64,000 nt of DNA. Origin: Pirellulales bacterium (lineage in GTDB: Bacteria > Planctomycetota > Planctomycetia > Pirellulales > JALHPA01). The DNA is taken from NCBI GenBank assembly GCA_041736895.1, contig JBGSSS010000210.1:7169-71168 (forward strand). Direction: 5' to 3'. The notes beneath the pieces are model-generated. The model saw only the letters and a list, made by a program, of their open reading frames with translations, was not told the origin of the DNA and made no database searches. The position numbers and the translations under genes are program-made. This document shows positions 2,604-63,778 of this stretch, piece after piece (the first letter of the stretch is position 1; each line of letters opens with the position of its first letter).

Positions 2604-2965
2604 TCATTTTTTTCTCTGTTGCGCCCAGCGCAACACCCCAGGAGCCTGAAAAACGGGGCAAAAAATGGGGAAAACGCGGGAAAAACCACCGAAAAAGCGC
2701 GGAAAAAACACGAAAAAATCGCAAAAAGATCAGAAAAAAACGCAAAAAGAACGAAAAAATTCAGAAAAAAACGCAACTGTGCGCGCCCCCGATTTCCGGG
2801 TTTAACGGAACACCGATTCGAGCCTTCGCCAGAATCTCGCGGGGAATACCGCAGTCCACGGCTCGCTCGGTCGGGCCAAAGCCGGACAAAGCGTGCGCCG
2901 CGCTATTTTTTTGTGTTGCCTTTAAAGGCAACCTTCGTTGGGCTTTTTCATTACTTCGTGCGCCC
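2604..2965 (+). repeat. phased-A-tract element, copy A
   Basis: About 360 bp, alignable by eye over its length with 44752-45110. 12 A-tracts at 2649-2771. Hairpins at 2618-2634 and 2915-2932. Confidence 0.85.
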
Positions 2966-3216: not shown

Positions 3217-3651
3217 TCAACTCAACGGCGGCGGTGGATAGTGCCTGTTCTTATCGAGCTCTTGACGCGCGTTATATTCCGGCGGCTCGAGCGAAGGAAA
3301 TGGCAGCGAGGGGAGCAGCGAAAACGAATCACTCTGCGCCACACCGAACAGCATGGCAAACAGTTGCACGGCCAATCCGACAAGGAAGCCGACCAAGGTG
3401 CAGCCAAATAGAATCACCAAGGGGATCAAGACGAGCGCCATGACGGTGGAACGTTCACTCCAAGTGGCAGCGTAGATGACGATCGTGATGAACGCTCCGA
3501 ATCCGCCCATCTGAAGCCCAGCGACGATGCCTTGACGCAGGTATTTTGTGTGCGCGGCGGACGCCAATGTGGCGGCACTTGCCGACGGCCGCAGTTCGGC
3601 CTGCGGCGCGGCATAGGGATTCTCCTCCGCAGGTGTTACGTCTTGTGACAT
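3217..3651 (-). CDS. small membrane protein, NPYxxPQ N-terminal motif family (paralog 4)
   Basis: MSQDVTPAEENPYAAPQAEL followed by two hydrophobic helices. ATG at 3651. One of four tandem paralogs. Confidence 0.6.
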   Translation of the reverse strand: MSQDVTPAEENPYAAPQAELRPSASAATLASAAHTKYLRQGIVAGLQMGGFGAFITIVIYAATWSERSTVMALVLIPLVILFGCTLVGFLVGLAVQLFAMLFGVAQSDSFSLLPSLPFPSLEPPEYNARQELDKNRHYPPPPLS

Positions 3652-3664
3652 GGGAATTATTCTC

Positions 3665-4021
3665 TCAATCATCCACTTCAAGCAACTGGTACGGTCTTCG
3701 CCAGCCGAAATCTTGCAGCATGCGATCGGTGATGGCGGCGACCGCGCCGAGCAATAACCCGCCAACAATGCAGACAGGTAAGGCAACGATGATATAGACG
3801 AACGCCATCAATAGCCAATAACCCGGCAGTTGCCAGCCCATCCGCATGATGAGATACATTACCAGACAGCAGCCTGCTAGAAAGCCAAGCTGATAGCCGT
3901 GTTGCATGAAATACCAGCGAGTCTCGTTCGTCCGAGTCGGTGCGGCAGCATGTTCTGCGGCGATGAGCTGTGTCTGCGGGGAAGTATAAGGATTCTCCTG
4001 CGCATGTTTGGATTCATTCAC
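3665..4021 (-). CDS. small membrane protein, NPYxxPQ N-terminal motif family (paralog 3)
   Basis: GTG start at 4021 overlaps the stop of the upstream paralog (GTGA). MNESKHAQENPYTSPQTQL plus two TM helices. Confidence 0.65.
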   Translation of the reverse strand: MNESKHAQENPYTSPQTQLIAAEHAAAPTRTNETRWYFMQHGYQLGFLAGCCLVMYLIMRMGWQLPGYWLLMAFVYIIVALPVCIVGGLLLGAVAAITDRMLQDFGWRRPYQLLEVDD

Positions 4022-4389
4022 GAAGCACCTCGCACTTCTTCGTCGTTGCTTGCAGCAAGACTCGATTCAGCGAACGAATCCGGCATCACCAACACAAAAC
4101 AAGCATACGCGATTCCCCAGGCAAGCCCCAGCACCATCGTCACGACGATGAAGACGCCGGCAATCAACAACAAGTTCTGCGCATTGGCTTGATAGCCGCT
4201 GAGCAGGCGCGCCAGATACAGCAGGATCATCGAGAGCGACGCGACCAGCCCGGCGGTCAAGCCGCGAACCATGCCGCGCCAGAGATACTTCCCCGGGAAG
4301 CGCCGCACGTTGCGGCCATGCGGCTGCTCATTCGCCGCGCGAAGGTTGGTCGTCTGCGGAGCTTCGTAGGCGTTCACTTGTGCTTGCAT
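4018..4389 (-). CDS. small membrane protein, related to the NPYxxPQ family (paralog 2)
   Basis: MQAQVNAYEAPQTTNL plus two TM helices. An alternative in-frame ATG at 4494 would add a DUF1810-derived leader (MNPTPDPHNMQRFLDAQELVY). Confidence 0.55.
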   Translation of the reverse strand: MQAQVNAYEAPQTTNLRAANEQPHGRNVRRFPGKYLWRGMVRGLTAGLVASLSMILLYLARLLSGYQANAQNLLLIAGVFIVVTMVLGLAWGIAYACFVLVMPDSFAESSLAASNDEEVRGAS

Positions 4390-4477
4390 CGTTTGCCCCT
4401 GAGGTCGCGACGGAGAAATGATCGCGCCGCCATAGACCAGTTCTTGCGCGTCGAGGAAGCGTTGCATGTTGTGCGGG

Positions 4478-4819
4478 TCAGGGGTAGGGTTCATCTGTTG
4501 GCGGCTCGTCTTTTGAAGCAAATGATTGCTGTTGGACTCGGGTTCCAGACACGCTTCCTAGATAAAGTCCAATACTGGAACTTAGGATTCCGATCATCGT
4601 GAATGCGATGAGATAGTCGATCGTAGTTCGCGGGCTCGATCGGTGAGTTTTAACTTCAGGTAGATAGAGAGAGGACATTAGCGCGGCGATAAAAATTGCC
4701 GACCAAAACGCGATGCGGCCATTAAACTTGTTTGTGTAGATGACTTTGGGCGGAGCCTTTAGTAGTTCAGCCTGCGGCGCGGCGTAGGGATTATCGAGCG
4801 GAGCCGGTTCGTTGTTCAT
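4478..4819 (-). CDS. small membrane protein, NPYxxPQ N-terminal motif family (paralog 1)
   Basis: MNNEPAPLDNPYAAPQAELL plus two hydrophobic segments. ATG at 4819. Confidence 0.6.
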   Translation of the reverse strand: MNNEPAPLDNPYAAPQAELLKAPPKVIYTNKFNGRIAFWSAIFIAALMSSLYLPEVKTHRSSPRTTIDYLIAFTMIGILSSSIGLYLGSVSGTRVQQQSFASKDEPPTDEPYP

Positions 4820-10390: not shown

Positions 10391-10397
10391 GAAATGC

Positions 10398-10424
10398 TCC
10401 CAGGGGATGAACCCCTGGGCTTTG
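10398..10424 (-). repeat. CAAAGCCCAGGGG-N4-CCCCTGGGA palindromic repeat
   Basis: TCCCAGGGGATGAACCCCTGGGCTTTG, between the convergent rsmA and metallophosphoesterase genes. Confidence 0.7.
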
Positions 10425-10441
10425 CTTTATGTCGCTTTGCC

Positions 10442-12132: not shown

Positions 12133-12166
12133 GCGGAAATGAACGGGAACACGTAATGCGCGACCG

Positions 12167-12193
12167 CAAAGCCCAGGGGTTCACCCCCTGGGA
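12167..12193 (+). repeat. CAAAGCCCAGGGG-N4-CCCCTGGGA palindromic repeat
   Basis: CAAAGCCCAGGGGTTCACCCCCTGGGA. Identical to 33491-33517. Confidence 0.7.
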
Positions 12194-14100: not shown

Positions 14101-14108
14101 GATGGAAT

Positions 14109-14934
14109 GTAGCCTACTTGCCCCGCAAGTAGGCGAAACGGGGGAAGAGTTGATTTTACAAAACACGCGAGTAGTGAATTACTTGCCGATAATCAATCCC
14201 AGCTTCTTTCGGGTTTTCGATGATGTATCGACGTAAGCGAAAAAATTGCGCCTCGGTTCTGATCAAATGATCAAACGAATCTGGTTGCCAAAAACGTCCG
14301 TGCACATCAATTGCTTGATTGATCTGAAAGGCAGTCAAATGCTTCCAATTGCGGCAAATCTTCAGCAGCGAAACATCGTCAGGAAATGCTGCGATAAGAT
14401 GCACATGATTCGGCATAATGATGAAGTCATAGAGGATGTAATCTCGTTCATCGTCATGCTGCAATACATCCGCGACGATTTGAGCAATTCGCTTTTTGCG
14501 CAAGACGCATTCGCCATAAGCACGATCAAGCAATCGATTCCAACCTTGCGTCATTTTGCGTTTATATTCAGTTTGCAATGTTGGATTCAGTTGACTGACA
14601 TTGACCTGCAACTGTTTTCCCTGAACAACAATTCCCTTGTCTCGTAACCAAGCATTCCGTTTTTGCAGCCAACGATCCAGCACAGCCTGGGGAATCGAGT
14701 CCCAGGTGCGCCAGGTAATGAAACTCAGGGTCGCTGCTTGAGACCAGTGCGGCAATCTTCGCTGCACAACGGACTTTTCCGCAGCGTGATCATACGTGCG
14801 GAAAGGAATCGACAGTTTTGGAATGTCCGACATAAAGTCGTTGCTCTTTTGTGAAGACAAGCAAGGTTCGGAGTCTGAGAGTCTTTCTCGCCAACTTGCG
14901 GGGCAAGTTGGCTACATTCAGGCAAGTTGGCTAC
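14109..14934 (-). mobile_element. RAYT locus: transposase gene bracketed by inverted REP hairpins
   Basis: Left GTAGCCTACTTGCCCCGCAAGTAGGC (14109-14134). Right GCCAACTTGCGGGGCAAGTTGGCTAC (14890-14915) plus half copy GGCAAGTTGGCTAC (14921-14934). The arms are reverse complements apart from one compensatory base pair. Confidence 0.7.
14156..14833 (-). CDS. REP-associated tyrosine transposase (RAYT, IS200-like Y1/HUH family)
   Basis: HUH motif in IIMPNHVHLIAAF; RFWQPDSFDHLIR; catalytic-Tyr region LRRYIIENPKEAGI. ATG at 14833 (TTG at 14860 possible). Flanked by inverted GTAG-headed hairpins. Confidence 0.8.
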   Translation of the reverse strand: MSDIPKLSIPFRTYDHAAEKSVVQRRLPHWSQAATLSFITWRTWDSIPQAVLDRWLQKRNAWLRDKGIVVQGKQLQVNVSQLNPTLQTEYKRKMTQGWNRLLDRAYGECVLRKKRIAQIVADVLQHDDERDYILYDFIIMPNHVHLIAAFPDDVSLLKICRNWKHLTAFQINQAIDVHGRFWQPDSFDHLIRTEAQFFRLRRYIIENPKEAGIDYRQVIHYSRVL

Positions 14935-21158: not shown

Positions 21159-21164
21159 GCAAAT

Positions 21165-21192
21165 GATAGTTGATAATGGACAATTGACAATG
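21165..21192 (+). repeat. AT-rich heptanucleotide tandem array (GACAATT/GATAATG type)
   Basis: GATAGTT GATAATG GACAATT GACAATG, between the OYE gene stop and the cupin gene start. Confidence 0.75.
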
Positions 21193-21217
21193 AATACGAG
21201 TCGTTGCTTCGTTCTCC

Positions 21218-26440: not shown

Positions 26441-26446
26441 AAAAAT

Positions 26447-26514
26447 GGATAATTGACAATTGATTATTGACAATGTGCGAGACACTTGCATTGTCCATTG
26501 TCCATTATCAATTC
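26447..26514. repeat. inverted AT-rich heptamer arrays (hairpin-forming), 3' of the fur-family gene
   Basis: GGATAATT GACAATT GATTATT GACAATG, then a 13-nt loop, then CATTGTC CATTGTC CATTATC AATTC. Between convergent stops at 26440 and 26523. Confidence 0.8.
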
Positions 26515-26969: not shown

Positions 26970-26974
26970 CGGGG

Positions 26975-27067
26975 CAATGGATAATTGATAATGGACAATT
27001 GACAATTAAAAACAGCAGCAGCGACAGCTTCCATCATTGTCCATTATCAATTGTCAATTATCAATTG
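26975..27067. repeat. inverted AT-rich heptamer arrays, 5' of the fur-family gene
   Basis: CAATG GATAATT GATAATG GACAATT GACAATT, then a 24-nt spacer, then CATCATTGTC CATTATC AATTGTC AATTATC AATTG. Begins 6 nt upstream of the fur-family ATG. Confidence 0.8.
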
Positions 27068-28761: not shown

Positions 28762-28981
28762 TGGTTTTTAGAAGCCCGCGGCGTGAGCCAGGGAGTGAAA
28801 TCAAAGTCAAAAGTCGAAAGGCAAAAGGAATGGTTTTCATTTTTCATCGGCCAAAGCCGCGGCGAGTCATGCGGCAAATCGTCCAAGTGACGGATCTTGC
28901 CGACGGTAACGATTACGCAGGCCATTGCGGACCAGCAGGGGATGATTTATCACACTGAGCAGCGGCTTGCATCGAAAATAC

Positions 28982-29008
28982 TCCCAGGGGAAAATCCCCT
29001 GGGCTTTG
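28982..29008 (-). repeat. CAAAGCCCAGGGG-N4-CCCCTGGGA palindromic repeat
   Basis: TCCCAGGGGAAAATCCCCTGGGCTTTG. Confidence 0.7.
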
Positions 29009-29026
29009 CAGGTTTCATTTCGCATT

Positions 29027-33465: not shown

Positions 33466-33490
33466 ATCGCGAGAATCATCGAATCACGAG

Positions 33491-33517
33491 CAAAGCCCAG
33501 GGGTTCACCCCCTGGGA
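33491..33517 (+). repeat. CAAAGCCCAGGGG-N4-CCCCTGGGA palindromic repeat
   Basis: CAAAGCCCAGGGGTTCACCCCCTGGGA, between msrA and the hydrolase gene. Confidence 0.7.
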
Positions 33518-33586
33518 GCATTCTGGGCATGCAGCAACTCTCCTTTTCACGCACTCTCCCCCCGGTCATTGACCGGGGGCTAATTT

Positions 33587-34488: not shown

Positions 34489-34532
34489 GTTATTTGCTAA
34501 GTCAGTCATCGAGTAAAGCAGAGACACACAAA

Positions 34533-34711
34533 GTAGCCAACTTGATCTGCAAGTTGGAACTCGCTGAGTGCCATTTCAAGTTCATGCACTATTTGCGAGC
34601 GGCGCATCTTTCCTTCTCGCGGGGCGAGAGGTCCACTTTGAATAGCTAACACTCGATTCAATGCGTCTTGGCCGCGCAGCGGTCTTCCAACTTGCAGAGC
34701 AAGTTGGCTAC
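34533..34711. repeat. REPIN-like inverted pair of the RAYT-flank REP type
   Basis: GTAGCCAACTTGATCTGCAAGTTGG (34533-34557) and CCAACTTGCAGAGCAAGTTGGCTAC (34687-34711). Same stem as the REP at 14890-14915. Confidence 0.65.
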
Positions 34712-34718
34712 TCTTTTC

Positions 34719-44678: not shown

Positions 44679-44751
44679 CTTGTTCCAAGGGACCCAACCG
44701 CAGCCTTCCGCCTCCTCAACATTCGTCCGCGTCCAGACAGCCGCGAAAGTG

Positions 44752-45110
44752 TCATTCTTTTTTCCTGTTGCTCCCGGCGCAACACCGCCAGACTCTCGAA
44801 AAACCGGGCAAAGCTGGGAAAAATCCGGGAAACACCACCGAAAACGCGCGAAAAAACCCAAAAAAATCGCAAAAAGATCGGAAAAAAACGCAAAAAGAAC
44901 GAAAAAAATCAGAAAAAAACGCAAATGTGCGCGCCCCCAATGTCCGTGTTTAAACGAACACCGCTTCGAGCGACTACCACAATCCCGCGGGCAAACCACA
45001 CTCGCCGCGCGCCGGGTCAGGCCCAAGCCGGACAAAGCGCGCGCCGCCCGATTTTGGGGTGTTGCCTTAAAAGGCAACACTCGCGGGGCTTTTGGGTCGT
45101 TCGTCGCCGC
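44752..45110 (+). repeat. phased-A-tract element, copy B
   Basis: Same orientation and architecture as copy A. A-tracts at 44799-44919. Hairpins at 44767-44783 and 45061-45078. Confidence 0.85.
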
Positions 45111-45112
45111 CT

Positions 45113-45217
45113 GTAGGTCCCGCGGTCCTCCGCGGGACCTGGTGCGGGGGGACGCGTGACGTGTCCTCTCGCGGCGTCCAACGCCGCACCGGGTCCCGGT
45201 CTCCGACCGGGACCTAC
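45113..45217. repeat. REPIN-like inverted doublet (GTAGG head)
   Basis: GTAGGTCCCGCGGTCCTCCGCGGGACC (45113-45139) and GGTCCCGGTCTCCGACCGGGACCTAC (45192-45217). Confidence 0.55.
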
Positions 45218-45729
45218 AACGTGCCTGCGCGCGCCTATTCCGGCCATTCTCTTTACACGCAGTATTCATATGAACACAACCGCTGGCCCAAAATCAACCC
45301 CCCACGGAGGTAAAAAAGGGGTTCAAGGTAAAAAAGGAAGGTAAAAAAGGGGTCAGAATGTCTGCCCCCTTACTCGCGGGGAAAGAGCCTTAAATCCAAG
45401 GTTATTTCCCACGATGTCATGGAGAAAAAAGAGGGCAGAACTATTTCATCAATTTTTCGGACTTCTTTTCTCCTCCGCCAAATTTCTAGAAGCCTTTGGG
45501 TTTTCCGCCTGAAATATTGTTCGATTTGCCAACGGGGCCTGTCTATAATCAAGCTTTCTCAAGGCGGCAAGGGAGCGATGCGGCAGAATCATTTCGGAGT
45601 GAAACAAGGTTAGGTGGAGCGCGAGGGGAAGCGTTTCCAGAGTGCCGGATCTGAGAATCGCCGCGCAGATGCTGCAACACAATTACGCGCTGGTCAAGTA
45701 CAACACCTAGGACTTGGGCTGGTCAGGAG

Positions 45730-48700
45730 ATGACGATGAGAATCACTTGCAATTCTCTGTTCAGGAACAGCACCTTATTTGTAGGGTGTATTTTATTTTG
45801 GGCTTTGTTCGTTGGAATTTCGAGCCAGGGACTTGCCCAACAAGTTCGCCCCAACATCATCCATATCTTGGCCGACGATCTCGGCTGGGGGAGCGTGGGG
45901 TTTAATAATCCGACAACCTACATTCAAACACCAAACCTCGATGCCTTGGCCATTGGCGGGATGGCGTTGTCGCGTTCTTACGCACCGACAGTTTGTTCCC
46001 CGACACGCGCTAGCCTGATGACGGGCTTCCATAATGGCCGGGCTTTCAACGATCGGAATGGGAATATTGCCGCGGGTCTTCGTGCTGAGGATGTCACGGT
46101 AGCCAACGTCTTGAATGATGCTGGCTATCGGACGGCGGTTGTCGGCAAATGGGGTTGGGGAGCGGACAATGCCGCTTCCCCCGCAATCAATAATTCAGGG
46201 ACTCTCCCAGCGAATCAGGGGTTCGATCAGTTCTATGGCTACTTGAATCACACCAGTGCCCATGATTACTACTATCCTCAGATGTGGCAATCCTCGGCGT
46301 TGGGCGGTCCCACGGTCACAAGCCCCAACAATGGCGGACCAGGCGGCGCGGCGCAATATACCCACGATCTCTTCACGCGCAGCACCGAAGCCTTTGTTCG
46401 GGATAACGCGACGGCGAGCCAGCCATTCTACCTGCAAGTCAGTTACACGATTCCCCATTTCAGTTTGAGCGACGTGGATGCCGCGCCGGCGCTGGTCAAT
46501 CTCGCGAACCAAACGATCTATCCCGGCGGTCAGGCACAATACGCGGCGAACGCCAGTCTGAGTACGGCCGAGAAGCGGCACGCCGCCATGATCTCGAGGA
46601 TGGATGCCTCGATCGGCTCCTTGATGCAGCGCTTGCAAGATCCGAACGGAGACGGCAATACGGCCGACTCGATCCTGAACAATACACTGATTCTCTTTAC
46701 CTCGGATAATGGCGCGTCGGCCGAAGGACTCGGCGCAACGGCCGCGGCGAGCAATGCGATTTCCGGCGGTTTGCGCGGCGGGAAACGGGATTTGTATGAA
46801 GGTGGAATTCGAATGCCCACGATTGCCTTTTGGCAAGGAACGATTGCCGCCGGTTCGAGTTCCGCCATCACAACGGACGTCGCCGACTTCCAGGCAACCG
46901 CTGCGGAACTGGCTGGCGGAAAAGCTCGCGTCGGCACCGATGGCGTTTCCATCCTGCCAACTCTGCTGGGAACTCCGGGGCAGCGCAATCGCGGCGGTTT
47001 GCTGTTCGAGAACTTTGAAAACAGCCAGTACGGGCAAAAGAATTCCGATTGGGCCGTGGTGCGGGATGATTACAAGTTGATCAAGTTTCGCGACGGCACC
47101 TTCGAACTCTACAACGTCACGACGGATCAAGGCGAAGCAGCCCCACTCAATCTAAGCATTCCGGCCAATGCAAACCTGCGCGCTGAACTCGAAGCTTTTG
47201 CGCTCCGGCAGGGAGCAGGCCAAGCCGACAGCTATGCGGTGGGTTTTCGTGATTGGAAAGGCGCGAATGGCGCGGACCTGGCGAGCCCTGCCAACTACGA
47301 AGTCACCAATGATCCGACGGCCAGCGTGGGGCCAGTTGCCGAAACATGGTCGGCACTCATTGAAAACCGCTCGGGTTCGCCGCAGTCTGCCAGGATGTCG
47401 AGCAGCGTCACGGTTCTCGGCCTCGAGGTCAGCGGCACAACACACCAGCAAGAGGTCGACATTCGCCCCAGCACGATCTTGACCGGCCGCAACGAGGTTC
47501 GAATTGGCAGTCATGGCAAGATTCAACTGACCAACGCCGAACTCCAATCGGATCGTTGGCTCGATCTGCAAGCGGGCGGCGTGCTGACAGGTCAGGGGAC
47601 GATCCGTGGGGATGTTTATCACAGCGGCACCATCAAACCGGGGTTCGATGGCGTCATGGGAACTCCTCCGCCGCCGCCGGTAACTGGCGGAACATTTAAT
47701 GTCGCGCTCGATTTTTCTGCAATCGATAATCGAGCCGGCAAAGACCTCGTCTACACCCCGCTGATCAGAACAATCGATCAGGGGGTGGTGAGCTTGGATT
47801 ACGGTCCATCCATCGGCTCCCGGCTCCTCGATCGCGGCTTCAACGATTTTGCCAGTGAGTTCAATCTCCAGAATTGGACAGTCGGCGGGACGCTGCAAGA
47901 TGCGATCAACGACAATGCTTTTGTAAGCATCACGGTCGATCCCACGGAGGGTCTGGCGGTATCGTTGCAGTCGGTCAAATTCAACTTCTGGAGGAATGGC
48001 GCCAACTCTCCGTCGCAATACGCCATCTCAACCAATCTCGACGGCTTTAATGCAAGCTCGCCTTTGGCAACCACCTCGGTAACAACTTCTGGCTCGGCAA
48101 ACACCGTTCAATTTCAGGCCAGCGGAACCGGTTTGTCGACCCGCGAGCAACTGGCGGTACGCCTGTATGGCTGGGGAGCAGGAAACATCAATGGCCATAC
48201 GCATTTAACCGGCGCAGCCCTCGATCTCCTCTTTACGACGGTCTCGGAAATCCCGCTAGCGCCCGCCGGCGTACTCACCATCGAAGGCGATTTGATCCAT
48301 ACGGCCTCGAGCAAGATCGAAATCGGCGTGGGAGGGTTCGACAACTCGAATATCAATGCGCGCGAGTTCGACTTGATTCAAGTGATGGGCGATGTCAATT
48401 TGCTCGGGGAGCTAATGCTCTTTGCTGAGGACGGCTTTGTTTTGGCTGGCGAGTCCCAGTTTACTTTCCTCACCGCCGATGCCGTTACCGGGAGTTTTTC
48501 CAGCTTCGAAGCCATCGGCTTTGATGGTTACAACGTCTCGCTGGTATACGGAAGCAATTCGGTATCCGCCAAGTTTACCCCAGTCCCCGAACCAAGCACC
48601 GTCCTGCTCGTGCTCGCCTGCGGCGGTTACTTGATCGTCAAACGACGTCGCGGATTAGAAAAAGGGGTCAGGCCCCTTTTTCTTGTTGACCGCGGCGGTG

Positions 48701-48762
48701 CGGCACTGCGTGCAGCGCGGCTGTCCCTAGGGCAGCACGGAATGGCGGGAGCAGACCAGTGA
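45730..48762 (+). CDS. sulfatase (formylglycine type) with long C-terminal domain and PEP-CTERM anchor
   Basis: PNIIHILADDLGWG, then CSPTRASLMTG (CxPxR). TPVPEPSTVLLVLACGGYLIVKRRRG near the C-terminus, followed by 36 extra codons. ATG at 45730 or 45736. Confidence 0.85.
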   Translation: MTMRITCNSLFRNSTLFVGCILFWALFVGISSQGLAQQVRPNIIHILADDLGWGSVGFNNPTTYIQTPNLDALAIGGMALSRSYAPTVCSPTRASLMTGFHNGRAFNDRNGNIAAGLRAEDVTVANVLNDAGYRTAVVGKWGWGADNAASPAINNSGTLPANQGFDQFYGYLNHTSAHDYYYPQMWQSSALGGPTVTSPNNGGPGGAAQYTHDLFTRSTEAFVRDNATASQPFYLQVSYTIPHFSLSDVDAAPALVNLANQTIYPGGQAQYAANASLSTAEKRHAAMISRMDASIGSLMQRLQDPNGDGNTADSILNNTLILFTSDNGASAEGLGATAAASNAISGGLRGGKRDLYEGGIRMPTIAFWQGTIAAGSSSAITTDVADFQATAAELAGGKARVGTDGVSILPTLLGTPGQRNRGGLLFENFENSQYGQKNSDWAVVRDDYKLIKFRDGTFELYNVTTDQGEAAPLNLSIPANANLRAELEAFALRQGAGQADSYAVGFRDWKGANGADLASPANYEVTNDPTASVGPVAETWSALIENRSGSPQSARMSSSVTVLGLEVSGTTHQQEVDIRPSTILTGRNEVRIGSHGKIQLTNAELQSDRWLDLQAGGVLTGQGTIRGDVYHSGTIKPGFDGVMGTPPPPPVTGGTFNVALDFSAIDNRAGKDLVYTPLIRTIDQGVVSLDYGPSIGSRLLDRGFNDFASEFNLQNWTVGGTLQDAINDNAFVSITVDPTEGLAVSLQSVKFNFWRNGANSPSQYAISTNLDGFNASSPLATTSVTTSGSANTVQFQASGTGLSTREQLAVRLYGWGAGNINGHTHLTGAALDLLFTTVSEIPLAPAGVLTIEGDLIHTASSKIEIGVGGFDNSNINAREFDLIQVMGDVNLLGELMLFAEDGFVLAGESQFTFLTADAVTGSFSSFEAIGFDGYNVSLVYGSNSVSAKFTPVPEPSTVLLVLACGGYLIVKRRRGLEKGVRPLFLVDRGGAALRAARLSLGQHGMAGADQ
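48658..48682. repeat. GAAAAAGGGGTCAGGCCCCTTTTTC hairpin repeat
   Basis: Lies inside the last 36 codons of ORF 45730-48762, just after the PEP-CTERM motif. Confidence 0.65.
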
Positions 48763-48814
48763 AAAACTCGGCCTGGAATCGACCCTCCGCCCCCGCGGCC
48801 GACCCAAGAAACCC

Positions 48815-48838
48815 GAAAAAGGGGCCTGACCCCTTTTC
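48815..48838. repeat. GAAAAAGGGGCCTGACCCCTTTTC hairpin repeat
   Basis: Inverted relative to 48658-48682. Between convergent genes. Confidence 0.65.
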
Positions 48839-48871
48839 CTCCCCCTTTCCGTTTGTTCCGTTTGAGCGTGT

Positions 48872-50917: not shown

Positions 50918-50930
50918 ATGGCCGAACCCA

Positions 50931-50953
50931 ATAAAGGGGCCTGACCCCTTTTC
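50931..50953. terminator. AAAGGGG-CCTGA-CCCCTTTT hairpin (terminator-like dispersed repeat)
   Basis: 14 nt after the AraC-family stop. Same hairpin at 48658-48682 (inverted loop) and 48815-48838. Confidence 0.65.
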
Positions 50954-51064
50954 TTCTCAAAGCTGCCTCAAATTCAAGGTTAATTCCCACGATTTCAAAC
51001 GTCCGCGGGAATATACTAATAGTCTGCCTGAATTCGGCCTGCCGCGGAGCAACTCGCCGCGCGG

Positions 51065-55583: not shown

Positions 55584-55659
55584 GGGATCACTCAAAAATG
55601 AGTTCCGCATTTTTTGTCGCCCGCAGAGTTACAACATGATGCAACTGCTATCACGGAAT

Positions 55660-55761
55660 AGCTCCGAAGGAGCGGCATTGTGTAGCCAGGGGTGTAAGCC
55701 CCTGGTTGACTTCACCAGGGGCTTGCACCCCTGGCTACATTCCTTCGCTCCTTCGGAGCTT
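55660..55761. repeat. nested ~100-nt palindrome containing a GTAGCC-headed doublet
   Basis: AGCTCCGAAGGAGCG...GTAGCCAGGGGTGTAAGCCCCTGG...CCAGGGGCTTGCACCCCTGGCTAC...CGCTCCTTCGGAGCT. Confidence 0.6.
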
Positions 55762-56070
55762 TGCCAGCAGATGTAGAATGTTGGTTAGCGAGGGCGACAA
55801 TAAACTTATGACGCCCTCGCTAACGCTACGGGCTATAAATTCCTCACTCACGGCAGGTGCCTGGGGTTGAGCAAGCGGTCCTCCGCACCAGGAAGACAGC
55901 GAACCCCCAGCGAGTTCAAGCTTGCGCTAAAAAAACAATAAAGCTGGGGGCCGCGCGATTGCGCTCCGACCCCAGTCACCCGTTGTTTTTAAAGAATTTC
56001 AAGCTTTTTTCTCGCTTGGTGTCGAATCATGTCGCGGCACTGTGTTTGTCTTGGTAAGGAGACATGACAA

Positions 56071-56682: not shown

Positions 56683-59099
56683 AAGTATCTCCCTGTGAAA
56701 AAGACCGCATCAACGAGTTCTTTCAGAGCGAGAGTAGCTGTGCGGAAGTTGAATTGGCCCAGCACCTTGAAGCCTGTGAATCGTGCCGTCAGTACTTCGA
56801 CTACCAAGCTGCTCCGCCGTACCGGTGGCGGGAAGCCACGCAACTGCTCCAACCCACCGAATTCGATCAGGCCAGCACCGCGGAGTTTTCCGCCGCAGCC
56901 CTGGGCCAGCGCGCGCCGCATCAGCCGTTGATGATTCAGTCGGTGCTCGATAGTCTCGCCCCCACGGATGATCCGCATCGCCTCGGGCGCTTGGGCGGTT
57001 ATGAGATTTCTGGCGTGATTGGGGTCGGAGGGATGGGCGTCGTGCTCAAAGCTTTTGATCCGGCGCTGGATCGTGTGGTGGCCATCAAAGTGATGGCTCC
57101 CCATCTGGCCAATAACGGCAGCTCCCGCAAGCGATTTACGCGCGAGGCGCGGGCGGCCGCGGCAGTGCTCCACCCCAACGTGATTCCCATCCACAGTGTG
57201 TCCAGCGATGCAGCGCTGCCGTACTTGGTCATGGCCTACATTCGGGGCGGCTCGCTGCAAAAACGGCTGCAACAACAGGGACCATGCACGACGGTCGAGT
57301 GTTTGCGGATCGGCGCGCAGATCGCAGCGGGCTTAGCTGCGGCCCATGAACAAGGGCTAGTGCATCGCGACATCAAGCCGGAAAACATCCTGCTCGACGA
57401 AGGGGTCGAGCGCGTCACGCTCACCGATTTCGGCTTGGCCCGCGCGGTGGACGATGCTTCGGTCACGCGCGATGGGACGATCGCCGGCACTCCCCAATAC
57501 ATGTCGCCCGAGCAAACACTCGGCAAATCGATTGATCAGCAGAGCGATTTGTTCAGTCTGGGATCCGTGCTCTATACTCTCTGCACGGGACGTCCGCCGT
57601 TTCGCGCGGATTCCTCTTATGCCGTGATGCGCAAGATCAGCGATGAAGCGCCGCTGCCGATTCGTGAATTGAATCCAGAAATCCCGGCGTGGCTCTGTGC
57701 CATCATCGGCAAGCTGATGGAGAAGAACAAAATCCACCGCTATAAAACTGCCCGCGAAGTTCATGAACTGTTGGAAGCGTGCTTAGCCCATGCTCAGCAG
57801 CCGACGGTCTTTCAACTGCCTGCTCCGCTCCGTGCTGGCAACAACAGCGCCGGCCGATTCCTGAAATTGGCGGCCGGATCACCGAGATTGCTGACTGTTT
57901 CCGCGGCTTTGGCCATCTTTCTAGGGATTGGCATCGACGCGGCATTTTTTGCCCCACCCCCGGCCAATCAGGCGGCCAATGAAATCCCCGGCGAGGGCGA
58001 AGCCCTGGGCTTTAGCTACACGCGCAAGGGCGACTTCATCTACTATAACGGCCGGCGCATCGACCAAGCTGGCAAAGAAACCCTTCTGCGGGCATCGTTG
58101 CGCCTGGGGCAAATGCTGAAACTTGCCCAAGACGTCGATGCCGCGAGCTTCAAAGTCCTGAGCGATGAATACACCAAGGACAAGAACAAGGTCTATTACA
58201 AATGGAACAGCCCTGATGGGCAATTTTGGGTGGTTGAACTGCCGAAAGCCGAGGCAATGAGCTTCGAAGTCATTGGCTTTAACCTTGGCAAGGACAACAA
58301 ACAGGTCTGGTGGTATGGCAGTCCGATGCCCGGCGTCGATCCCAAAACTGTCGAACTGGTGAACGATGGTTTCGTCTGGAAGGATGCTAAGAATGTCTGG
58401 TACCAGGATGAACAAATTGTCGAGGCAGATCCCCGGACATTTCGGCACCTGGAGCAAGCGTTTTATTCCGACAAGAGTCATGTTTATTGGTCGGGTACCC
58501 GCCTGAATGGCGCGAACCCTGTCCTCTTTCGGACGTTTGGCGACGAGAGTCCTTACGGCGCTGATCTGAATTGTGTGTGGCGGGGCTCCGAGCAAATTTT
58601 CAATGTTGATGCGCCATCCTTCGAGACGGTTCACCAGTCGGTCTATCTCGACAAGAATGGCGTTTACGCTAGCGGGAATCCCCTGGACAACGCCGATCCG
58701 AAAACCTTTCGCAAGTTAGTTAACCTGGACATCCATTTCACCGCGTTGCTGGCGGATGCGAATCAGCACTACGTCTATCTGCCGTATCGCGGCGAAGTCT
58801 ATCGCGTCTGGTTGGAAGACAAGGCGCTGAAAGTCGAGCGGCGGATTTGGTCTCTCAAGGACCCGCGAAAACCGGCCGCTGGATATAAATCCGTAGGGAT
58901 CTTCTCGGCAGAACTTGGAGCCAATGGCTGGATCAACCCCGTCTTCGCCTCGGACCTTCCGCCGAAAGAAAGTCAGTCGTTTGTGGATGAAGATATTCGA
59001 CTGCTCAAGCTCTACGACGGCCGATTCGCGAAAGCAAAGGAGATCCTGAGTAAAAAGCCCGATGCCAAAGAGGATGTTCCAAAAGAAGGCAATCAGTAA
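56679..59099 (+). CDS. anti-sigma (zf-HC2)-Ser/Thr protein kinase fusion with TM helix and DKNYY-repeat periplasmic domain
   Basis: HLEACESCRQYF zf-HC2. Kinase motifs GVGGMGVVLKA, HRDIKPENILL, DFGLA, GTPQYMSPE. TM segment LLTVSAALAIFLGIGI. Repeats DKNKVYY / DAKNVWY / DKSHVYW / DKNGVYA. Confidence 0.9.
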   Translation: MKVSPCEKDRINEFFQSESSCAEVELAQHLEACESCRQYFDYQAAPPYRWREATQLLQPTEFDQASTAEFSAAALGQRAPHQPLMIQSVLDSLAPTDDPHRLGRLGGYEISGVIGVGGMGVVLKAFDPALDRVVAIKVMAPHLANNGSSRKRFTREARAAAAVLHPNVIPIHSVSSDAALPYLVMAYIRGGSLQKRLQQQGPCTTVECLRIGAQIAAGLAAAHEQGLVHRDIKPENILLDEGVERVTLTDFGLARAVDDASVTRDGTIAGTPQYMSPEQTLGKSIDQQSDLFSLGSVLYTLCTGRPPFRADSSYAVMRKISDEAPLPIRELNPEIPAWLCAIIGKLMEKNKIHRYKTAREVHELLEACLAHAQQPTVFQLPAPLRAGNNSAGRFLKLAAGSPRLLTVSAALAIFLGIGIDAAFFAPPPANQAANEIPGEGEALGFSYTRKGDFIYYNGRRIDQAGKETLLRASLRLGQMLKLAQDVDAASFKVLSDEYTKDKNKVYYKWNSPDGQFWVVELPKAEAMSFEVIGFNLGKDNKQVWWYGSPMPGVDPKTVELVNDGFVWKDAKNVWYQDEQIVEADPRTFRHLEQAFYSDKSHVYWSGTRLNGANPVLFRTFGDESPYGADLNCVWRGSEQIFNVDAPSFETVHQSVYLDKNGVYASGNPLDNADPKTFRKLVNLDIHFTALLADANQHYVYLPYRGEVYRVWLEDKALKVERRIWSLKDPRKPAAGYKSVGIFSAELGANGWINPVFASDLPPKESQSFVDEDIRLLKLYDGRFAKAKEILSKKPDAKEDVPKEGNQ

Positions 59100-61612: not shown

Positions 61613-61695
61613 CAAAAAACGGGCGACGGATTCCAATATGAAATCAGTCACCCGCATGGTTTTTTGTCAGTTTGCTAAGCGGCGAAGCGGCGGGG
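61613..61695 (-). repeat. ~85-bp repeated terminator-containing element, copy 1
   Basis: CAAAAAACGGGCGACGGATTCCAATATGAAATCAGTCACCCGCATGGTTTTTTGTCAGTTTGCTAAGCGGCGAAGCGGCGGGG, downstream of the stop at 61786. Confidence 0.7.
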
Positions 61696-63686: not shown

Positions 63687-63778
63687 CAAAAAATGGGCGA
63701 CTGATTCCAATATGAAATCAGTCACCCGCATAGTTTTTTGACAGATTGCTAGGCGGCGAAACGGTGGGTGCATTGACG
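63687..63778 (-). repeat. ~85-bp repeated terminator-containing element, copy 2
   Basis: CAAAAAATGGGCGACTGATTCCAATATGAAATCAGTCACCCGCATAGTTTTTTGACAGATTGCTAGGCGGCGAAACGGTGGG, downstream of the stop at 63794. Confidence 0.7.

Follow-up and report, generated by a model that had tools for sequence, protein, structure and literature searches.

Tracts of A that recur once per helical repeat and are separated by G/C-rich spacers are the classical design of strongly curved DNA (Crothers- and Trifonov-type bending), with the kinetoplast minicircle bend, the curved parC centromere of plasmid R1 (11-bp iterons), and curved DNA upstream of promoters as familiar examples. In bacterial genomes, periodic A-tracts are usually a weak statistical signal, the meaning of which is debated. 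Bending is also built into intergenic mosaics: in E. coli, bacterial interspersed mosaic elements of type 1 (BIME-1) are made of two repetitive extragenic palindromes (REPs) around a linker that often carries a bending site for integration host factor (IHF), and gyrase binds both REPs and BIMEs, to which topological insulation has been attributed (PMC3333891). The motif of gyrase is 130 bp long: its arms carry bending signals of 10.75-bp periodicity, its 35-bp cleavage centre is non-periodic, and BIME-2 elements count among the strong gyrase sites (PMC6379681). In C. elegans, periodic A/T clusters (PATCs) are Helitron minisatellites that were remodelled to the helical repeat, encode curvature, and are proposed to be mechanical insulators (bioRxiv 10.64898/2026.08.08.743475). 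Here, a unit of ~350 bp that joins a helically phased A-tract array to terminal palindromes is described from a 64,000-nt stretch (hereafter, the window) of contig JBGSSS010000210.1 from a Pirellulales bacterium. The unit occurs as two same-strand copies, copy A (2602-2952) and copy B (44751-45098), both on the plus strand. It is tentatively read, at somewhat less than an even chance, as a BIME-like extragenic DNA element in which a predicted intrinsic bend flanked by hairpin-forming palindromes would have a curved-DNA architectural role.

The array of copy A (2649-2771, plus strand) consists of 12 A-tracts, each 4-7 nt long and set off from the next by 3-6 nt rich in G/C, and successive tracts start 11, 11, 10, 11, 11, 10, 10, 11, 10, 10 and 11 bp apart. 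The array of copy B (44799-44919, plus strand) holds 10 tracts of at least four A plus two degenerate AAA at in-phase positions. Including an orthologue from a European Nucleotide Archive metagenome (L016), three copies carry tracts of at least 4 bp at the helical repeat, with 10-12 tracts per copy and 12-13 in-phase positions. The Fourier peak of A-tract spacing was at 10.5 bp, and linear fits through the tract centres gave periods of 10.56 bp (copy A), 10.45 bp (copy B), and 10.52 bp (L016), with residual standard deviations of 0.59 bp for copy A and 0.53 bp for copy B (about 0.55 bp over 12-13 turns in the three copies). This period equals the B-DNA helical repeat. An initial annotation of this DNA had described the segment as A5-7 separated by 3-6 GC-rich nt; the tracts are there, and the description was incomplete in that it overlooked the helical phasing, the starts being 10 or 11 bp apart throughout. 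Arrays A and B are the two strongest 10-11-bp A-periodicities in the window, with a power of 7.3-7.7 compared with at most 2.8 elsewhere in 146 kb of relatives' DNA (excluding the L016 orthologue and the Logan contig L017, which is copy B itself). In every tract the A lies on the plus strand, which is very poor in T, and the copy A array was assigned periods of 11, 21, and 22 by Tandem Repeats Finder (TRF).

The path of the helix axis was predicted with a wedge model, and the trajectory is indicative only. The ratio of end-to-end distance to contour length was 0.375 for copy A and 0.365 for copy B (0.33-0.38 over the three copies), compared with 0.90-0.92 for shuffled sequences (0.92 for those of A and B; minimum 0.63), and arrays A and B gave the two largest predicted axis deflections in the window, that of copy B being the largest. 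The model predicts that the array bends the duplex by half a circle or more, and it is from this model that we infer curvature. The array shares the recipe for planar curvature with classical bent DNA (A4-7 tracts once per helical turn, G/C-rich spacers); in contrast, the classical cases are single-locus sequences of known function (a ParR-bound centromere, a promoter), whereas the present unit is duplicated and stands alone with no adjacent partition or replication gene. It resembles the gyrase motif in length (about 125-135 bp) and in its periodic bending signals (PMC6379681), but it is continuous, has no non-periodic centre, and keeps a planar period of 10.45-10.56 bp rather than 10.75 bp.

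Copies A and B are 82% identical over 341 aligned positions (BLAST, E 6e-91) and show 85% column identity when aligned with MAFFT. Their homology starts at ~2602 and 44751 and stops at ~2948-2952 and 45094-45098, respectively (BLAST and nhmmer); beyond these edges scores drop to shuffle level, the flanks of the two copies being unrelated. The four blocks that the initial annotation had listed as shared were all found in place: the 5' palindrome (2618-2634 and 44767-44783), a block TGTGCGCGCCCCC...TTCGAG (2778-2822 and 44926-44970), a block AAGCCGGACAAAGCG.GCGCCGC (2879-2901 and 45025-45047), and the 3' palindrome (2915-2932 and 45061-45078). No third copy was found in the window by BLAST or nhmmer, and the relatives' 146 kb held no other copy apart from the L016 orthologue. 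An nhmmer profile of A, B, and L016 searched against all 36 loci gave a partial module in L035 as its sole new match. L030 also gave matches to the array and to GGCCCAAAATCAA, but these fall within coding regions and were set aside as chance.

The L016 locus encodes a DUF1559 protein that is at least 90% identical to the one beside copy B, followed by an element made of a T-run, the palindrome GTTGCCTCGAGACAAC, at least 12 phased A-tracts, a 3' palindrome identical to that of copy B (GTTGCCTTAAAAGGCAAC), a second palindrome GTTGCCTTTTAAGACAAC, and a final T7. The two DUF1559 genes are 88-89% identical in DNA (76% at third codon positions), and the intergenic DNA behind them can be aligned in three stretches only: 125 bp of the array (74%, phase kept and spacers changed), 33 bp at the 3' palindrome (88%), and a 75-bp block that lies beyond the unit. 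From the copy B junction, L016 retains CGCA-loop-TGCG and nothing of the remaining junction block. The second and third blocks are conserved between A and B only, so their conservation reflects the recent common origin of these two copies. That L016 keeps the period although its spacers differ and its array is one turn longer speaks against pure accident, and judged from this comparison the array phase and the palindromes appear to be what selection holds.

Larger collections were searched as well. An exact-pattern scan of a genome collection with AAGCCGGACAAAGCGNGCGCC returned five matches, all in unrelated phyla and to the pattern only, and a scan of a metagenome collection with AAACGCAAAAAGAACGAAAAA returned 10 matches, again to the pattern only; both patterns fall in blocks that the L016 orthologue does not conserve and are poor probes. 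The element was not matched in four viral-contig scans or in a plasmid and phage BLAST search run in distant mode. The Logan contig L017, an independent assembly of the copy B locus, ends at its position 4312 (window ~44911), inside the A-tract array; such a break is as expected from a repeat shared with other loci and hints at further genomic copies.

A short palindrome preceded by a run of T marks each end of the unit on the plus strand. In copy A, a T7 run (2607-2613) is followed by GTTGCGCCCAGCGCAAC (2618-2634; DNA hairpin of -8.8 kcal/mol, z -6.4; whole end 2607-2634), and the right end (2915-2948) carries the perfect palindrome GTTGCCTTTAAAGGCAAC (2915-2932; -6.5 kcal/mol, z -3.9) and then CTTCGTTGGGCTTTTT. 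In copy B, a T6 run (44758-44763) precedes GTTGCTCCCGGCGCAAC (44767-44783; -4.2 kcal/mol, z -1.2; whole end 44758-44783), and the right end (45058-45093) carries GTTGCCTTAAAAGGCAAC (45061-45078, stem extendable to 45058-45081; -9.8 kcal/mol, z -5.4) and then ACTCGCGGGGCTTTT. The palindromes are thus 16-18 nt long, extendable to 20-24 nt, and fold as DNA with -4 to -10 kcal/mol. Differences between the copies had been thought to fall in loops or unpaired positions, which does not hold for the 5' palindrome of copy B, where a G to T change breaks a stem pair (T-C mismatch); relative to copy A, this hairpin is reduced from eight pairs to six and its stability from -8.8 to -4.2 kcal/mol, a value that shuffled sequences reach as well. 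What is kept is the foot (C/G)TGTTG...CAACA, while stems and loops vary and the spacing of the half-sites varies between 8 and 10 nt. In L016, the 5' stem has lost inner pairs and gained outer ones, and the two outermost palindromes both read GTTGCC..GACAAC, as if changing together. Because the foot is kept, the half-site spacing varies, and L016 swaps inner for outer pairs, the palindromes seem to behave more like hairpins than like duplex operator sites. Palindromes of the form TGTTG..CAACA occur four times in the window, three of them inside the element, against a shuffle mean of 0.85. A dispersed GTTG-tagged REP family was rejected, such palindromes being at chance frequency outside the element, and no matching consensus for attC, dif, or parS was seen when the palindromes were judged by eye.

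The closest architectural parallel is BIME-1 (also repetitive IHF-binding palindromic elements, RIPs) of enterobacteria, likewise an extragenic mosaic in which two imperfect palindromes bracket a bend site, often just after genes (PMC3333891, PMC6379681). Unlike BIME-1, in which the bend is induced by IHF, the bend here would be encoded in the sequence of the ~125-bp A-tract array; the linker is ~280 bp rather than ~30 bp; and the palindromes are direct rather than inverted, judged by their T-runs. With regard to REP features more broadly, the length of the palindromes, when extended, falls in the 20-40 nt of imperfect REP palindromes, but the tetranucleotide GTAG/CGTC was not found at the palindrome foot, and neither a high copy number nor inverse pairs with a short linker were seen in the window. 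Lacking the GTAG tag, the copy number, and a cognate REP-associated tyrosine transposase (RAYT), and having neither the terminal inverted repeats nor a significant target-site duplication of classical miniature inverted-repeat transposable elements (MITEs), the unit should not be filed in either family.

Related genomes supplied both filled and empty sites. The copy B locus is filled in the window and in L016 and is empty in L034, L035, and L036, where the orthologues of the DUF1559 gene (85%, 73%, and 69% protein identity) are followed by 75, 97, and 206 bp, respectively, without the element. The copy A locus is empty in 7 of 7 distinct relatives of the neighbouring DUF1810 gene (77-89% protein identity; L018/19, L020-29, L030, L031, L032, and L033), in which a small membrane-protein gene overlaps or abuts the DUF1810 start. 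Since both loci are empty in relatives with 84-89% identical flanking proteins, the unit was gained recently at both. Both sites are also rearranged, and their junctions are not clean, so transposition is no more than a plausible route of gain.

Several rearrangements were seen at these loci. At locus A, a 60-bp copy (82%) of the 5' coding end of DUF1810 lies at 4425-4484 (compare 2451-2510), 2 kb upstream of the real gene. The region 3217-4819 holds reshuffled small membrane-protein paralogues that share the motif ENPYAAPQAEL, in a gene order unlike that of all relatives. A toxin-antitoxin insert, with a YafQ-like toxin gene (1529-1810) overlapping a small upstream open reading frame (ORF; 1807-2040), separates the DUF1810 and glyoxalase genes; these two are adjacent in relatives, which makes the pair (1529-2040) a lineage-specific insertion beside copy A. 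At locus B, homology between the window and L016 stops directly after the 75-bp block and resumes inside a gene for a Y1 transposase. The DNA between (45302-48690 in the window, 2209-9100 in L016) is a variable segment, which contains a sulfatase gene in the window and, in L016, the gene for a 1441-aa PATR/CBM/DUF642 protein, two more ORFs, and the beginning (5' part) of a Y1_Tnp gene that is intact there (227 aa). In the window, the 5' part of the Y1 transposase gene is deleted and only its last 148 bp are left (48691-48838).

Under the reading preferred here, the selected core would be the intrinsically curved segment of ~125-135 bp with its 12-13 A-tracts, one per helical turn, bracketed by short hairpin palindromes (foot TGTTG...CAACA) with a T-run before each; the unit would have been gained recently at two unrelated intergenic sites and then kept in place. 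With its tracts in phase, the duplex would follow a planar arc covering at least half a circle, and this arc could pin the tip of a supercoiled loop or offer a pre-bent surface to a DNA-wrapping protein (gyrase or a nucleoid protein), bringing the sequences that flank the array together. The terminal palindromes would be recognition sites when the unit is copied, and perhaps also RNA 3'-end hairpins. Action at the DNA level, a protein partner, and the mode of spread are, like curvature, things that we infer.

A wider proposal, that bacteria carry small copyable "mechanical" DNA cassettes in which a sequence-encoded half-circle bend (12 helically phased A-tracts) between hairpin ends spreads like a mobile element, is doubtful at present. 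The host might retain such a cassette for its shape, which would organise supercoiling or, at gene boundaries, wrap gyrase or a nucleoid protein. If true, prokaryotes would have a counterpart of PATCs, the transposon-derived periodic A/T clusters for which a role as mechanical insulators has been proposed in C. elegans. The two share a minisatellite from a mobile element, a period equal to the helical repeat, and a proposed mechanical or topological action (bioRxiv 10.64898/2026.08.08.743475); PATCs, in contrast, are eukaryotic, kilobases long, and read through nucleosomes and chromatin silencing, and the comparison is an analogy only. In this window, A-tract periodicity is concentrated in a discrete, duplicated, hairpin-bounded unit in which the phase is conserved while the spacers change, so the question of whether DNA shape alone, and not a protein motif or an RNA, can be selected and copied around a bacterial chromosome becomes directly testable, and the unit is short enough to be synthesized in phase-scrambled versions. 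The element may help to explain the intergenic architecture of Planctomycetota, whose non-coding DNA is almost unstudied. Should further copies reveal nothing more than a rare local duplication carrying an A-rich minisatellite, the unit would be a curiosity.

A number of points weigh against an architectural role. Two copies and one orthologue are all that was found in the 64-kb window and the relatives' loci, and neither a mobilising enzyme nor a binding protein was identified. Curvature is only a prediction of the wedge model, and the period could have been inherited from the tandem duplication of 21- or 31-bp units (TRF). The restriction of A to one T-poor strand fits a strand-specific RNA or single-stranded DNA role equally well, and the variable half-site spacing of the palindromes points to hairpin recognition in single strands and not to duplex sites. 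Two of the three independent loci (B/L016 and the partial L035 module) lie just 3' of a gene on its sense strand, which fits an RNA element of the 3' untranslated region (UTR). Finally, gain may have come about by recombination rather than transposition, both loci being rearrangement junctions.

An RNA element is the alternative that survives best, and is itself rather unlikely. The plus strand would be transcribed; at copy B and in L016 the transcript would be the 3' UTR of the DUF1559 mRNA or a small RNA (sRNA) derived from that mRNA. Its U-poor, unstructured, A-rich array would offer many binding sites, as a ligand or sponge, to an RNA-binding protein such as Hfq (through its distal face), S1, or CsrA, and the hairpins would protect the ends. 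Placing every A on one strand would give a single-stranded A-rich RNA, and the position of the unit is suggestive at some loci: copy B and the L016 element start ~70 bp past a sense-strand stop codon with no terminator between, and the L035 module lies between the enolase stop codon and a canonical terminator, whereas copy A has no upstream sense-strand gene. No sigma-70-like site was found in or beside the element by consensus scan, promoters of the sigma-70 or extracytoplasmic function (ECF) type inside the unit were considered and dropped for want of a matching consensus, and no terminator is common to the copies, the terminator-like sites being copy-specific or weak. Hairpin feet are conserved and stems and loops are variable, as an RNA might have it; the structured non-coding RNA that the initial annotation had proposed nevertheless found no backing in the folds. 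The element had no match in Rfam at gathering score (matches at E ≤ 5 were noise far below threshold), whole-element folds were not unusually stable on either strand (z -0.8 to -1.4), and the covariation terms of RNAalifold, applied to three sequences and therefore of low power, were penalising on both strands (+1.79 and +0.57), with the invariant 3' palindrome as the single solid helix.

A few GGA motifs in the 5' half of the array also speak for an RNA, although there are only ~3 of them. Sponge sRNAs (CsrB/RsmZ) are likewise non-coding units that repeat a short single-stranded motif, a likeness that bears on the RNA alternative only; unlike in those, the repeats here are not in hairpin loops, and the matches of the element to RsmY and CsrC in Rfam were far below threshold. 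Against an RNA role, no known RNA-binding mode calls for a repeat of 10.5 nt that stays within about half a nucleotide across 12 units. This helical-repeat phasing competes with the earlier idea of a ligand for A-rich-binding RNA chaperones and points to double-stranded DNA.

It is likewise unlikely that the unit is a purely selfish, non-autonomous transposable element, such as a palindrome-associated derivative of the IS200/IS605 type moved by a Y1/HUH transposase, with the array as an incidental minisatellite of no function to the host. The initial annotation had offered a mobile (MITE-like) unit, and part of this stands: the edges are sharp, both loci vary between presence and absence, and both copies have the same orientation. 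Like MITEs and IS200/IS605-derived elements, the unit is small, non-coding, hairpin-bounded, and absent from the same site in close relatives. Unlike them, it has no terminal inverted repeats (the termini TTTTTTCTCT... and ...GGGCTTTTT are not inverted repeats, and only the subterminal self-palindromes share GTTGC/GCAAC), no significant target-site duplication, and no cognate transposase that could be found. The candidate flanking direct repeats, TTCATT/TTCATT for copy A and GTCATTC/GTCGTTC for copy B, are no better than shuffles (equal matches in 34-89% of shuffled flanks), and a TCACGC/TCATGC pair at L016 was spotted by eye only. The same-strand subterminal hairpins at both ends, with neither terminal inverted repeats nor target-site duplications, match the IS200/IS605 architecture, as a resemblance only. 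TCAT-like pentamers are present at the left flank and right end (TTCAT/TTCAT, GTCAT/GTCGT, and ATCAC/TTCAT), but they are no better than shuffles, and no pairing with guide bases 5' of the hairpins could be made out.

Genes of the Y1 type do exist in the lineage (8556-9239 in L016, the remnant at 48691-48838, and an ORF at 14156-14860), but they are flanked by other hairpin types and not by the GTTGC palindromes of the element. Within the 64-kb window the unit occurs twice, and the 146 kb from relatives yielded the orthologue alone. The array phase and the palindrome were held while adjacent intergenic DNA diverged past alignment, unlike an incidental minisatellite, and no member of the MITEs or IS200/IS605-derived elements is known to carry a helically phased A-tract array.

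Other hairpin families accompany the Y1 genes. The region 14105-14919 is REPtron-like: its 234-aa ORF (14156-14860, minus strand) bears MPNHVHLI, a motif of HUH type, is weakly similar to the Y1 transposase of L016, and is flanked by inverted 32-nt GTAG-type palindromes (14105-14136 and 14888-14919), a type seen again at 34530-34559 and 34685-34712. Beside the Y1 remnant, hairpins of the family AAAAAGGGG(T/C)C(A/T)G(G/A)CCCCTTTT lie at 48653-48684, 48810-48841, and 50925-50956 (compare 45340-45375), and sequences similar to these AAAAAGGGG..CCCCTTTT hairpins flank the intact Y1 gene of L016.

Far less probable is that the curved array and palindromes serve, as a bend resembling an UP element and as operator sites, a promoter further downstream, for instance in the 75-bp block (45227-45301). 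In copy B, L016, L035, and L018, a block CAGTATT...GGCCCAAAATCAA lies 170-300 bp behind a palindrome module, in the same orientation, and points at a gene 190-430 bp downstream, and the block is 89% identical between the window and L016. It lies, however, outside the duplicated unit, the right flank of copy A is unrelated and is followed by no plus-strand gene, the array is more than 300 bp upstream of the putative promoter, and the consensus scan that found no sigma-70-like site in or beside the element bears on this proposal too.

The intergenic 75-bp block corresponds to L016:2134-2208 (TTTACA..CAGTATTCATATGAACA..GGCCCAAAATCAAC) and is as conserved as coding DNA; similar motifs in two relatives further removed, at L018:7667-7705 and L035:14148-14095 (minus strand), are always directed toward the downstream gene. 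The block may be a promoter or a recombination boundary.

The element is non-coding, as had been argued, and the idea that it encodes a small Lys-rich protein (plus strand) or a Phe-rich membrane peptide (minus strand) is close to refuted. Long ORFs do run through it, of 175 and 159 aa in the plus direction and of 81, 105, and 62 aa in the minus direction, but indels of 1, 2, or 3 nt put them in different frames in copies A and B, with the shared peptide KIAKRSEKNAKRTKK reached from unrelated upstream frames. The ORF called in the array of L016 has only 31 aa and an unrelated extent. A collection of 15 billion proteins contains none of the exact ORFs, none of the four tested has a Pfam family, and the 159-aa Lys-rich ORF of copy B has no homologue in the protein database.

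No relation to an adjacent gene is shared by the two copies. Copy A is set between two genes of the minus strand, that of DUF1810 and that of a small membrane protein ending at 3217, and is ~80 bp upstream of the start of DUF1810, which is probably at 2523 (the longest ORF begins at 2580). Copy B starts 73 bp past the stop codon of the DUF1559 gene, a pseudopilin-like gene on the same strand, and is 630 bp upstream of the sulfatase gene; PSCyt/DUF1501 genes are the neighbours in relatives. The nearest named homologues are from a Pirellulales metagenome-assembled genome (65%) and Lignipirellula (55%), and these, taken with the flanking genes, assign the window to an uncultured planctomycete of the Pirellulales.

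Between array and 3' palindrome, comparison of the copies delimited two further features on the plus strand. The junction comprises the inverted repeat CGCA..TGCG and the conserved second block, TGTGCGCGCCCCC...TTCGAG in copy A (2772-2822) and TGTGCGCGCCCCC...GTTTAAACGAACACCGCTTCGAG in copy B (44920-44970). On the minus strand it is terminator-like in both, with GCGCACAGTTGCGT and then T7 in copy A and a weak hairpin and then T7 in copy B (terminator scan). The third block reads AAGCCGGACAAAGCGCGCGCCGC in copy B (45025-45047), one base different from copy A, and is not kept in L016. In copy A, it reads AAGCCGGACAAAGCGTGCGCCGC and overlaps a G+C hairpin and a T7 run at 2906-2912 (whole feature 2879-2912); a plus-strand terminator-like site there (2890-2904 plus the T run) is absent from copy B.

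Directly after copy B (45111-45220 and 45310-45350) there are G+C-rich palindromes, GGTCCCGCGG tcct CCGCGGGACC (45116-45139) and GGTCCCGGTctccgACCGGGACC (~45192-45214), enclosed by a longer inverted repeat TGTAGGTCCCG..CGGGACCTACA and with three GGTAAAAAAGG repeats next.

Repeats of other kinds are dispersed over the window. A REP-like hairpin family, GCAAAGCCCAGGGG..CCCCTGGGAGCATT, is commoner than the element and occurs in both orientations (10392-10425, 12166-12193, 28976-29009, 33489-33522, and 57982-58015). Two Rfam Acido-Lenti-1 matches above gathering score (55660-55705, minus strand, and 55715-55760, plus strand) form a 52-nt inverted pair at 55655-55765. An 82-nt direct repeat (90%) at 61613-61694 and 63687-63768 contains a terminator-like hairpin GGGCGAC.GATT..AATCAGTCACCCGC followed by T6, and similar terminators, GCGGGCGACTGATC.., are found after the enolase gene in L035 and L036. 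Lastly, clustered 7-bp repeats (TTGACAA/ATTGTCA, period 7 and 14, direct and inverted) at 21159-21194, 26442-26506, and 26974-27067 may be arrays of protein-binding sites.

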